The notes beneath the pieces are model-generated. The model did not search any database and was not told the DNA's origin. It worked only from the letters and a program-made list of their open reading frames with translations. From positions 44,433-108,432 of the forward strand of contig JAURQH010000048.1 in the NCBI GenBank assembly GCA_030836185.1: a stretch of DNA of 64,000 nucleotides. Reading direction: 5' to 3'. This DNA comes from Planctomycetota bacterium. Its GTDB lineage: Bacteria; Planctomycetota; Planctomycetia; Planctomycetales; Planctomycetaceae. How positions within the stretch are numbered: the first letter of the stretch is position 1; the number at the start of each line of letters is the position of its first letter. Below are positions 11,747 to 31,820 of this stretch, piece after piece. Both the position numbers and the translations under genes were made by a program.

Positions 11747-11750
11747 AATC

Positions 11751-11833
11751 GACGAAAACGTAGCTGGATTCTCAAGAATTCAGACGAAACGCGAGCGACG
11801 TCGATTGTTCTGAACTCTTGCGAGTTCAGCTAC
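11751..11833 (+). repeat. REPIN-like repeat, copy 1 (imperfect 25-nt inverted arms)
   Basis: The prefix GACGAAAAC is followed by left arm GTAGCTGGATTCTCAAGAATTCAGA (11760..11784). A 24-nt spacer containing the palindrome CGACGTCG separates it from right arm TCTGAACTCTTGCGAGTTCAGCTAC (11809..11833). Confidence 0.85.
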
Positions 11834-11858
11834 GGGTGAGGTTTACGGAGCGGTTCCC

Positions 11859-12449
11859 ATGAACGAGCAACGCCGCAAGTCTCTGAGACGATTGCCGCCG
11901 GAGTTCTACCAGAGGCGCGCTTATGTGCATTGGTCTCTCACCATGCAGGATCGAAAGACCGGCTGGCTGACTCCGGTCTTTTATTATAAGTATCGCGAAA
12001 TACTCACACATACCGCGTTTCGTTTTGGTCTCTGCTGCCCGCTTTATTGCTGCATGCCGGATCATATTCACATGCTTTGGGTCGGTATTCACCCAGTCAC
12101 TGACCAACGTCTCGCAATGCGTTATTTCCGCAAGCAGTTAAACCCTGTTCTTGAAATAATGCAGTCGAAGCTCCAACACCAACCTTACGACCACGTATTG
12201 CGCGAGAGTGAATGCGAGCGCAATGCTTTTGAAGACTTAGCAGAGTACATTGCGCGCAATCCCGAACGGGGGAAGCTGGTTGCTCCCGATGGCTATGCAA
12301 ATTACTCTTACACCGGATGCCTCGTTCCGGGGTATCCAGAACTGAAACCCTTCGAAACTGGGTTTTGGGAGAGCTTTTGGAGAATCTATTCGCATCTTTG
12401 CGAGCACGGCCTGCAAGTCAAGCCACGCAAGGATGCGACGAAAACGTAG
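11859..12449 (+). CDS. REP-associated tyrosine transposase (IS200/IS605-like HUH Y1 transposase, RAYT)
   Basis: 196 aa with the HUH motif in MPDHIHMLW. The catalytic-Tyr motif is in AEYIARNPERGKLV (Y...NP). It is flanked by hairpin repeats, and the last codons plus the stop (ACG AAA ACG TAG) lie inside the repeated unit. Confidence 0.8.
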   Translation: MNEQRRKSLRRLPPEFYQRRAYVHWSLTMQDRKTGWLTPVFYYKYREILTHTAFRFGLCCPLYCCMPDHIHMLWVGIHPVTDQRLAMRYFRKQLNPVLEIMQSKLQHQPYDHVLRESECERNAFEDLAEYIARNPERGKLVAPDGYANYSYTGCLVPGYPELKPFETGFWESFWRIYSHLCEHGLQVKPRKDATKT

Positions 12450-12519
12450 CTGGATTCGCAAGAATTCAGACGAAACGCGAGCGACGTCGATTGTTCTGAA
12501 CTCTTGCGAGTTCAGCTAC
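12437..12519 (+). repeat. REPIN-like repeat, copy 2
   Basis: Identical to copy 1 except for G instead of T at 12458 (arm position 13). Arms are at 12446..12470 and 12495..12519. It lies between the convergent RAYT and the RFAP-synthase-like gene. Confidence 0.85.
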
Positions 12520-12556
12520 GAAATTCGATTCGATTTGAGCAAGTTCACGCCTGAGA

Positions 12557-18601: not shown

Positions 18602-19405
18602 ATGGGGAGCTTCTTTCGAATTCTGGCCAAGCCGGTCACCCGCTTTCTGGTGGGCGTGATCGCGATCCCGTTGTTTCGTTTATTCATGCGTAAAGTCATT
18701 CGGCTTCAGCAACTGGATGCCGAGCTCGAAAAAGATATGGAGCAATGGTTCCGTGGGTCTTTGGTTTTGCTCGTCGCGACTGCCAATATGGAATTTGCAT
18801 TGTTTGGCTGGTTGTATGAACGACCTGAAACGGTTTCAGCACCAAAAACGACGATTTCAAAAGAAGCCGAAAACTTGACAGAGACCGAGGAGCCATACCT
18901 TACAGGTGAGGAAATTGACGAAAACGGGCAGATGAAAAAAATCTCTGCATTGGGCGTCTTGCTGATGGGCTTACGACTACTGCTCGCCATGAGTGTGATC
19001 GAAATGATGCCCGACCAAGAACTCTTTTCGATCATTCATCCCGGCCCTCCCAAAATCAAATACGACAAATCAAAATCACTCTGGCAACACTTCAGAATCT
19101 ATACTTGGCCGATGCTGCGCGGAATTGTTTGCCAGCATCTGAACCGCTCCTCACCCGTGCTGGCAATTTTGTGTGCGATTTTCATGGGTTGGGTCGGCTG
19201 GCTCTGTTACGGATTGGCCATCACCCAATATCTCATCATCGGGTTGGTGACCTCGAAAGACAAAGCCCTCGACGCACTCTCCGAGTTCGACCGTCAGGTC
19301 GCCTTACGACGTCGGGAATTACTGGACGAATTCGATTACATCGAAGAAGAGGTCCAGCGAAAGAATGCCCAAGCCGCGGAAGCGAATACTGCCGAAGACG
19401 AATAG
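18602..19405 (+). CDS. multi-pass membrane protein, putative RT-associated effector
   Basis: 267 aa, starting 25 nt after the RT stop on the same strand. It has four or five hydrophobic segments (FLVGVIAIPLFRLF, SLVLLVATANMEFALFGWL, ISALGVLLMGLRLLLAMSVI, SPVLAILCAIFMGWVGWLCYGLAITQYLIIGLV). The C-terminal tail is acidic and coiled-coil-like. No family recognised. Confidence 0.6.
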   Translation: MGSFFRILAKPVTRFLVGVIAIPLFRLFMRKVIRLQQLDAELEKDMEQWFRGSLVLLVATANMEFALFGWLYERPETVSAPKTTISKEAENLTETEEPYLTGEEIDENGQMKKISALGVLLMGLRLLLAMSVIEMMPDQELFSIIHPGPPKIKYDKSKSLWQHFRIYTWPMLRGIVCQHLNRSSPVLAILCAIFMGWVGWLCYGLAITQYLIIGLVTSKDKALDALSEFDRQVALRRRELLDEFDYIEEEVQRKNAQAAEANTAEDE

Positions 19406-31742: not shown

Positions 31743-31820
31743 GTAGCTGGATTCGCAAGAATTCAGATAAAATACCGGGGGGCAAGGTCGAACATCCTGA
31801 ACTCTTGCGAGTCCAGCTAC
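31743..31820 (+). repeat. REPIN-like repeat, copy 3 (same arms, different spacer)
   Basis: The left arm at 31743..31767 is identical to that of copy 2. The right arm CCTGAACTCTTGCGAGTCCAGCTAC (31796..31820) has two substitutions, and the 28-nt spacer is unrelated. It is in the same orientation as copies 1 and 2. Confidence 0.8.

Follow-up and report, generated by a model that had tools for sequence, protein, structure and literature searches.

A probable REPIN-RAYT system with directly repeated doublets in a divergent clade of planctomycete transposases

We analysed a 64,000-nt stretch of DNA from a planctomycete (hereafter, the window), corresponding to contig C24:44433-108432 of a 5.16-Mb, 107-contig assembly (the source genome, G000), and focused on a gene for a 196-aa Y1 transposase that is bracketed by two paired repetitive extragenic palindromes (REPs). 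The locus very probably constitutes a genuine system of REP doublets forming hairpins (REPINs) and a REP-associated tyrosine transposase (RAYT)—a ‘REPtron’—in which a single-copy Y1 RAYT of a distinct planctomycete clade is accompanied by cognate 25-nt REPs, paired as ~76-nt doublets.

Locus anatomy and REP census

A repeat search of the window returned an 85-nt direct repeat on the plus strand, at 11750-11834 upstream and 12436-12520 downstream of the gene, with 84 of 85 positions identical. The original prediction, which had been made from the sequence alone, described 83-nt repeats bracketing the open reading frame (ORF); these are real, the full unit extending one base further at each end and retaining the single mismatch, a T versus a G in the left-arm loop (11772 / 12458). 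Each unit comprises a left arm, GTAGCTGGATTC[T/G]CAAGAATTCAGA (11760-11784 and 12446-12470), a 24-nt spacer, CGAAACGCGAGCGACGTCGATTGT (11785-11808 and 12471-12494), and a right arm, which reads GTAGCTGAACTCGCAAGAGTTCAGA on the minus strand (11809-11833 and 12495-12519), in agreement with the inverted 25-nt arms and spacer proposed before. Three positions distinguish the left arm from the right and yield G-T, T-G and A-C oppositions across the long hairpin; two of the three are thus G-T pairs, as anticipated. Every 25-nt arm is a REP-type hairpin in its own right: its GTAG head is followed by a stem of 8 bp (CTGGATTC/GAATTCAG) with a GCAA loop, and this anatomy is that of a textbook REP. When folded as single-stranded DNA, the doublet forms a single extended hairpin with a folding energy of -25.1 kcal/mol (z = -5.1), a value matched by 0/200 shuffles. 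Allowing for up to three mismatches, the arm pattern occurs six times in the window versus 0 expected from shuffled sequence. The third doublet of the same family lies at 31743-31820 on the plus strand; its 28-nt spacer is unlike that of the RAYT-flanking pair, and it is one of ~16 dispersed copies.

The RAYT gene itself spans 11859-12449 on the plus strand and encodes the predicted HUH and Y...NP motifs, the former as H69-I-H71 (12063-12071) within MPDHIH and the latter around Tyr130 (12246-12248) within EYIARNPER. Upstream, the right arm of the doublet points its GTAG head, on the minus strand, toward the gene and is followed by a leader, GGGTGAGGTTTACGGAGCGGTTCCC (11834-11858), whose first ~10-13 nt (GGGTGAGGTT) are found again on the right-hand side of most dispersed doublets. 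A GGAG at 11847-11850, 8 nt before the ATG, may act as a Shine-Dalgarno-like element. Downstream, the TAG stop (12447-12449) makes up all but the first base of the left arm's GTAG head, and the 10 nt preceding this GTAG, CGACGAAAAC, are part of the bracketing repeat; they form the left flank of the upstream doublet and, in the downstream copy, the last RAYT codons. The inclusion of the stop and final coding nucleotides in the repeat had been correctly recognized.

Throughout the source genome, the 85-nt unit gave 23 BLAST matches. A fuzzy arm search followed by pairing identified ~18 doublets and, in addition, a few unpaired arms, some at contig ends, and a degenerate arm pattern returned 19 + 18 = ~37 arms as compared to 0 for the reversed control. 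The arms are therefore not confined to three sites; such a confinement, which the original prediction had considered, would have spoken against a REP family. Doublets preserve their asymmetry—a GGATTC...GAATTC arm, then a GAACTC...GAGTTC arm—around spacers of variable sequence and mostly 26 nt. The retention of both this left/right asymmetry and the ~26-nt spacer length across the ~18 doublets suggests that the doublet, and not the single REP, is the copied unit. Fourteen of the 18 doublets are clear of any ORF of at least 120 aa, while the remaining four overlap the RAYT's own stop codon or spurious-looking ORFs; doublets and arms are essentially all intergenic, with no real gene overlapped. 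The RAYT gene, represented by one tblastn match, is single-copy and hence far less abundant than its REPs. A 17-aa tblastn match at G000:C15:77956-78006 was considered as a decayed second RAYT and dismissed, the best E-value in a profile search of the six-frame translation being 0.28.

A planctomycete RAYT clade with co-varying REPs

Relatives of the 196-aa protein are numerous, comprising 1,247 matches in 90% clusters (601 clusters at 50% identity), some of which have been named RayT by JGI, and at least 393 in a scan of species-representative genomes. The 80 best relatives are nearly all labelled Planctomycetota (Pirellulales, Planctomycetales, Isosphaerales and Gemmataceae), some of them being cultured strains; one is labelled Deltaproteobacteria and another simply ‘bacterium’. 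Cultured members of the clade include strains of Novipirellula, Roseiconus and Rhodopirellula. MPDHxH, QPYDHVL and EYIARNPER are invariant among close relatives. In a set of 49 diverse relatives, Y130, N134 and P135 never vary, while at least 90% retain H69 and H71.

A profile built from these 49 sequences matched E. coli TnpA-REP (4ER8) in the PDB at 2e-10, with IS200/ISDra2 at ~0.01; PDB searches with the single sequence or a shallow profile gave no match, 4ER8 being reached by the 49-sequence profile only. All 49 relatives matched the NCBIfam model REP_Tyr_transpos, and five matched IS200. The AlphaFold model of the protein (pLDDT 93.7) found its top fold match in 4ER8 as well, a RAYT bound to a REP hairpin (template-modelling (TM) score 0.59/0.69; root-mean-square deviation 2.6 Å), with IS608 and ISDra2 behind. 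In a tree with the seven other Y1 genes of the source genome and the 4ER8 segment, the clade stands apart. Judged by profile and predicted fold, the protein is nearer to TnpA-REP than to the TnpA of IS200/IS605 insertion sequences; the original prediction had allowed that it might group with ordinary IS200 TnpA, which it does not. What would mark an IS200/IS605 member is likewise missing: the gene is single-copy, carries Y...NP in place of Y...Q, and is adjoined by no tnpB-sized ORF.

The arrangement seen in the window recurs across the clade. Locus counts given here refer to the best 80 loci of the at least 393 relatives. GTAG hairpins occur within 150 nt downstream of the gene in 72/78 loci and within 200 nt upstream in 72/75. 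The head of the nearest downstream REP faces the gene in 50 loci and that of the nearest upstream REP in 51. At the level of single REPs, those closest to the gene are inverted and point their heads at it, as in classical REPtrons. In 27/80 loci, the TAG stop falls within a GTAG head. Doublets are present on both sides in 39/80 loci, with within-locus identities of 50-99% (99% in the source genome and 97% in locus L046) that reach at least 89% in 11/39. A few metagenome-assembled genomes (MAGs) among the 80 loci hold two gene copies.

Orthologues in two further genomes, G021 (71% identity) and G030 (60%), show a left-arm...right-arm doublet upstream, a stop in the GTAG of the downstream left arm, and one or more right arms thereafter. 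This layout is shared by the metagenomic loci of the homologues P0002 (87%), P0004 (76%) and P0007 (74%). Two spacer positions distinguish the brackets of the P0004 locus, where ~14 nt left of the GTAG again lie within the repeat. The flanking units had been described as being in direct orientation, which is correct, and as unusual in this respect, which is not: the direct arrangement recurs in the G021, G030, P0004 and P0007 loci, two-sided doublets are found in the 39 of 80 loci mentioned above, and direct doublet orientation is the norm of the clade.

While the layout is kept, the REPs themselves diverge. In G030, the stem has become GGAAGTC/GACTTCC and the loop GTGA, still of the GNRA type. 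Among 17 hand-picked arm variants from five genomes, 99.3% of the stem cells were paired, with 4/8 pairs compensatory and 0/500 shuffles scoring as high; the GTAG head was invariant. On these comparisons, REP sequence and RAYT lineage vary together from genome to genome.

As a separate observation, the upstream doublet of L046 (the contig of P0004; positions 1080-1125) supplies an EATKT-TAG end to an unrelated 372-aa gene further upstream. Since this tail is the same as the RAYT's own, REP units can apparently rewrite the C-termini of neighbouring genes.

In principle, such hairpins could primarily serve the host as terminators, mRNA stabilizers or protein-binding sites, their proximity to a RAYT being incidental. 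Doublets do sit 3' of genes and between convergent genes, and secondary roles of this kind are reported for REPs elsewhere in bacteria (Di Nocera et al. 2013, PMC3733652). However, a promoter/terminator scan found no T-tract terminator signature at the units and the hairpins matched no Rfam family. The association with the gene clade in 72/80 loci, with co-varying sequence, and the shifts in copy number and sequence between close relatives, further argue against this explanation, which we already disfavour and regard as very improbable.

Sister genomes, metagenomes and alternative explanations

Two same-genus genomes lack a gene of the clade and keep its two neighbouring genes adjacent. In the outgroup (G001), these neighbours are separated by 25 nt at a REP-free site. 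In the sister genome (G002), they lie 138 nt apart and enclose one solo doublet, whose right flank matches that of the downstream copy in the window and whose left flank abuts the upstream gene. The site in the source genome equals that of the sister genome plus a clean 686 bp, consisting of leader, gene, 3' flank and one doublet. Whereas the two brackets in the source genome are almost identical to each other, they share only ~85% identity with the orthologous solo doublet, which points to their recent duplication or to gene conversion keeping them alike. Either the gene was lost from the sister genome by direct-repeat recombination, or a cassette was added in the source genome at a pre-existing doublet. 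Direct repeats of 85 nt at a distance of 686 bp would offer a ready recombination route to gene loss, leaving a solo doublet as in the sister genome. Beside that solo doublet, the orthologue of the GHMP-kinase-like gene (L031; G002:C15:48733-49707) contains one in-frame TGA, which could reflect a pseudogene, a sequencing error or recoding.

One alternative is that doublet, leader, RAYT and doublet together still form an autonomous mobile element and not a domesticated, immobile RAYT; such an element would be either IS200/IS605-like, with the doublets as its ends, or one inserting at, and duplicating, existing doublets. The gene is patchy, being found in 3/60 relatives searched (all three among ~35 same-family genomes) and absent from both same-genus genomes. 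It sits in unrelated neighbourhoods in every genome examined: next to a 295-aa ORF and a GHMP kinase in the source genome, ribBA in G021, DUF6687 in G030, and others in loci L046 and L047. In the 11 loci with near-identical brackets, these resemble each other despite doublet spacers elsewhere in the genome differing widely; the sister-genome comparison presents a clean 686-bp addition beside a doublet; and IS200/IS605 ends are same-strand hairpins, too. Yet G021, G030 and the source genome each contain just one gene copy, the protein is nearest to TnpA-REP in sequence and fold, with Y...NP and not Y...Q, and no tnpB gene lies alongside. Brackets are less than 89% identical in 28/39 loci, the solo doublet is explained equally well by deletion between direct repeats, and loss of synteny is expected anyway at family-level distances. 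We consider such an element quite unlikely. Marginally easier to entertain, though still unlikely in our estimation, is that RAYTs of this clade are not fully domesticated and that a cassette of leader, RAYT, 3' flank and doublet homes to existing doublets, duplicating them. Homing would explain the near-identical direct brackets in many independent loci, the 686-bp difference, the patchiness of the gene, and the relics of its 3' end and leader.

The putative relics lie in the flanks of the dispersed doublets. Most carry GGGTGAGGTT, the start of the RAYT leader, on the right (a flank also given as GGGTGAGG); on the left is a short stretch similar to the final codons of the RAYT. In a subfamily of 4-6 copies, the left flank reads GAT GAA GCA ACG AAC AGG TAG (DEATNR-stop), much as the genes of P0002 (NEATNG-stop) and P0004 (NEATKT-stop) end. 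The copied unit thus seems to carry remnants of both gene ends. Beyond ~14 nt, the resemblance of the left flank to the RAYT 3' end is weak (~60-65% identity over 25-29 nt); alternatively, by analogy with IS608, the short left flank may represent a conserved cleavage or insertion target that is not part of the moved unit. The suggestion that the upstream copy arose by duplication of the RAYT 3' end together with its hairpin is borne out in part: many dispersed copies and the sister-genome solo doublet share the left flank, of which one subfamily has the DEATNR-stop version.

At least 20 metagenomes of estuarine and marine origin contain the locus. Four runs, drawn from different studies, yielded contigs that broke at the doublets, and no joint skipping the gene was seen. 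The gene body was covered at flank-like depth in two of these independent metagenomes, X1 and X3, where the locus is stable; a 669-nt contig from X3 connected the right arm of the upstream doublet with the left arm of the downstream one and showed zero differences. Nanopore reads, sampled at ~2%, matched repeats only and were uninformative on circles or solo forms. Separately, in the low-coverage runs X12 and X14 the RAYT body (window 11847-12411) showed about half the k-mer depth of its flanks (~4.3 vs 7.2-7.5 and ~3 vs 5.5-7.8, respectively); the values are very noisy, and the difference may be noise or stem from a subpopulation with the solo form.

Several observations weigh against a REPIN-RAYT system run by this gene. 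As for the protein, its sole Pfam and NCBIfam matches, to Y1_Tnp (PF01797; 16.8 bits, cut-off 23) and REP_Tyr_transpos (NF047646; 23.1 bits, cut-off 80), are both below threshold, and YD takes the place of the W[EQ] of published RAYT subclasses. Its motif triplet, DHIH / YD / YIARNP, is class-2-like (Y...NP) and, compared by motif only, fits no listed RAYT subclass, subclasses 2.1-2.8 carrying W[EQ], FQ or W[YH] (Quentin et al. 2018, Table 1, PMC6006769). The protein would accordingly be described as a divergent clade rather than filed as a member of NF047646 or PF01797. As for the genomes, REP presence was expected to track gene presence among relatives, and no clean match emerged: G002, G007 and G023 hold 25-169 arms (41 in G002 by the degenerate pattern) with no detectable gene of the clade, G007 and G023 being incomplete and repeats tending to break assemblies. 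All of these genomes carry other Y1 genes, the sister genome and the source genome seven each. The former is therefore devoid of this clade only and not RAYT-free, and in the latter the other seven could in principle act on the same REPs.

Occupancy of the dispersed sites provides a further point of this kind. Between source and sister genome, 7/13 sites could be resolved, five of them shared—as orthologous doublets with common spacers and flanks—and two absent from the sister genome; among the remainder, the flanks of C24:76175 match paralogous places, and five sites have one or both flanks missing or rearranged. Both sites specific to the source genome (L010 and L011, at G000:C18:62042-62383 and C49:~18712-19016) hold not bare doublets but composites of 305-342 nt, each with a doublet of this same family (family A) inside it and without an obvious target-site duplication. 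Since the occupancy differences are composites, recent mobility of bare doublets is not shown. The direction of change at these sites is not set, as the outgroup lacks the whole REP family.

Doublets might spread mainly inside larger composites that resemble miniature inverted-repeat transposable elements (MITEs) and are moved by another transposase, leaving the RAYT little or no current role. Apart from the two source-genome-specific sites, the terminal inverted repeats of the C49 composite (GGTTCATCCGA/TCGGATGAACC) fit this scenario, as does a 228-nt composite (a 140-nt left part plus doublet) with 4-5 copies in the source genome, whose left part occurs at least seven times in the sister genome. 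Conversely, ~12/18 doublets have no composite context, no candidate transposase for the composite was identified, and a passive passenger would not explain lineage-specific, co-varying arms beside a RAYT throughout the phylum. We deem hitch-hiking improbable as the principal explanation and retain the REPIN-RAYT system as the very probable one.

The source genome contains additional Y1 genes and REP-like repeats. A second, canonical RAYT (DHLH / WQPRFWEH / YIHFNP) at G000:C82:32046-32405 groups with E. coli TnpA-REP in the tree (98/99 support) and has on its flanks GTAG REPs of a different type in inverted orientation, GTAGGGCAGGGGCCTCCCTGCC / ...CCCTGCCCTAC; a related palindrome, GTAGGGCCGGTGGAACCGGCCCTAC, is among the commonest 16-mers of the genome (25-28 copies). 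Another arm type (family B), GTAGCTGCGTTCGCAAGAACGCAGA, has the head and loop of family A on a different stem and is present in ~13 copies, mostly singlets, on C9, C19, C28, C34, C50 (three in tandem), C82, C85 and C89 and at C24:120600; no Y1 gene flanked by family B REPs was found in the source genome. A class-3-like Y1 gene (NHVH, YVDEAQ) at G000:C103:1601-1885 is bracketed on both sides, in direct orientation, by a hairpin, AACCGCACGCTGGCGCGTTGCGGCTGATTTCG, and by a second repeat, GGCTGAGTACG(C/T)CGCCTGAAAATTACGCCCCATCAGCCGCAGGGCG. Short repeats commoner than family A, at ~40 copies each, include ATTGTTGGTCTACCGC, AACGCTAACTCTGGTA, AAGATTCGGGAAGATT and CTGCAACGTGAGAAAG, and GGTGGCTGGGGACGAACG(C/T)AGTGAGCCCCCAG forms inverted repeats around the Y1 gene at C23:47969.

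Proposed mode of action and comparison with known systems

By analogy, the system would work like the E. coli REPtron and the REPIN-RAYT systems of Pseudomonas. Each REP of a doublet, defined by its GTAG head, 8-bp stem and GNRA-type loop, is paired with an inverted partner, and the pair folds into a long hairpin on single-stranded DNA. As in E. coli TnpA-REP and IS608/ISDra2, the enzyme is expected to bind a single-stranded REP at its hairpin and GTAG head, probably when the DNA is exposed at the replication fork, and to cleave nearby by means of Tyr130 and a metal held by H69/H71. Doublets would occasionally be copied or moved in this way without duplication of their flanks.

Work on REPIN-RAYT systems has been almost entirely proteobacterial. 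The present locus cleanly represents a large clade of planctomycete RAYTs, with members in at least 393 species genomes, that falls short of the cut-offs of current Pfam and NCBIfam models. The lineage-specific, co-varying REP/RAYT pairs lend themselves to the study of hairpin recognition, and source and sister genome offer a natural comparison with and without the gene. There is also a bearing on the annotation of planctomycete MAGs, given that doublets break short-read assemblies and provide neighbouring genes with stops and C-terminal tails.

The original prediction had called a planctomycete REP/RAYT family worth cataloguing. The clade is indeed poorly catalogued, but REPs are not new to the phylum: Di Nocera et al. 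2013 (PMC3733652) describe GTAG REPs in Planctomycetes and, in R. baltica, many tyrosine transposases with flanking repeats, several REP families, REPs overlapping transposase 3' ends, and GTAG heads giving TAG stops. The R. baltica transposases resemble ours by description and may belong to the same clade. REPtron loss by deletion is already known as well. New here are the phylum-wide, sub-threshold RAYT clade with its co-varying doublets and the solo site in the sister genome; in the text examined of the R. baltica account, no description of a phylum-wide clade, co-varying REPs or a sister-genome solo site was found.

With respect to the E. coli REPtron (TnpA-REP, 4ER8; REPs and bacterial interspersed mosaic elements (BIMEs)), the planctomycete locus shares the HUH motif with a single catalytic Tyr, Y...NP, the single gene copy, the imperfect palindrome behind a 5' GTAG head, and the inversion of gene-proximal REPs. 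The two proteins are only ~16% identical. The planctomycete one has YD in place of WE, a strand rich in Cys (CCPxYCCMPDH) and, at its C-terminus, a conserved extension of ~50 aa (GCLVPGYPEL...FWxxFWR), and its gene, in contrast to the E. coli arrangement, has complete doublets on both flanks and a stop within a REP head.

The REPIN-RAYT system of P. fluorescens SBW25 (Bertels and Rainey 2011, PMC3116915; Bertels et al. 2017) is similar in its unit, a doublet of inverted REPs forming a long hairpin, and in its organization, a single-copy RAYT flanked by its own REPIN type alongside an extragenic population of diverged copies. Abstracts of REPIN papers speak of hundreds of elements, as opposed to ~18 doublets in the source genome, and of group 2/3 RAYTs as vertically inherited, whereas the planctomycete gene is patchy among close relatives and without conserved synteny. 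The SBW25 RAYT moreover belongs to a different clade.

Finally, the IS200/IS605 elements (TnpA of IS608 and ISDra2) have in common with the present system the Y1 HUH fold, same-strand hairpins at both ends, the expected absence of target-site duplication, and a single-strand mechanism. They differ in having Y...Q, many identical copies and often tnpB, and in their distance from the planctomycete protein (profile E ~0.01; TM ~0.43). The planctomycete gene, by contrast, is single-copy, and its hairpins constitute a dispersed family without the gene.

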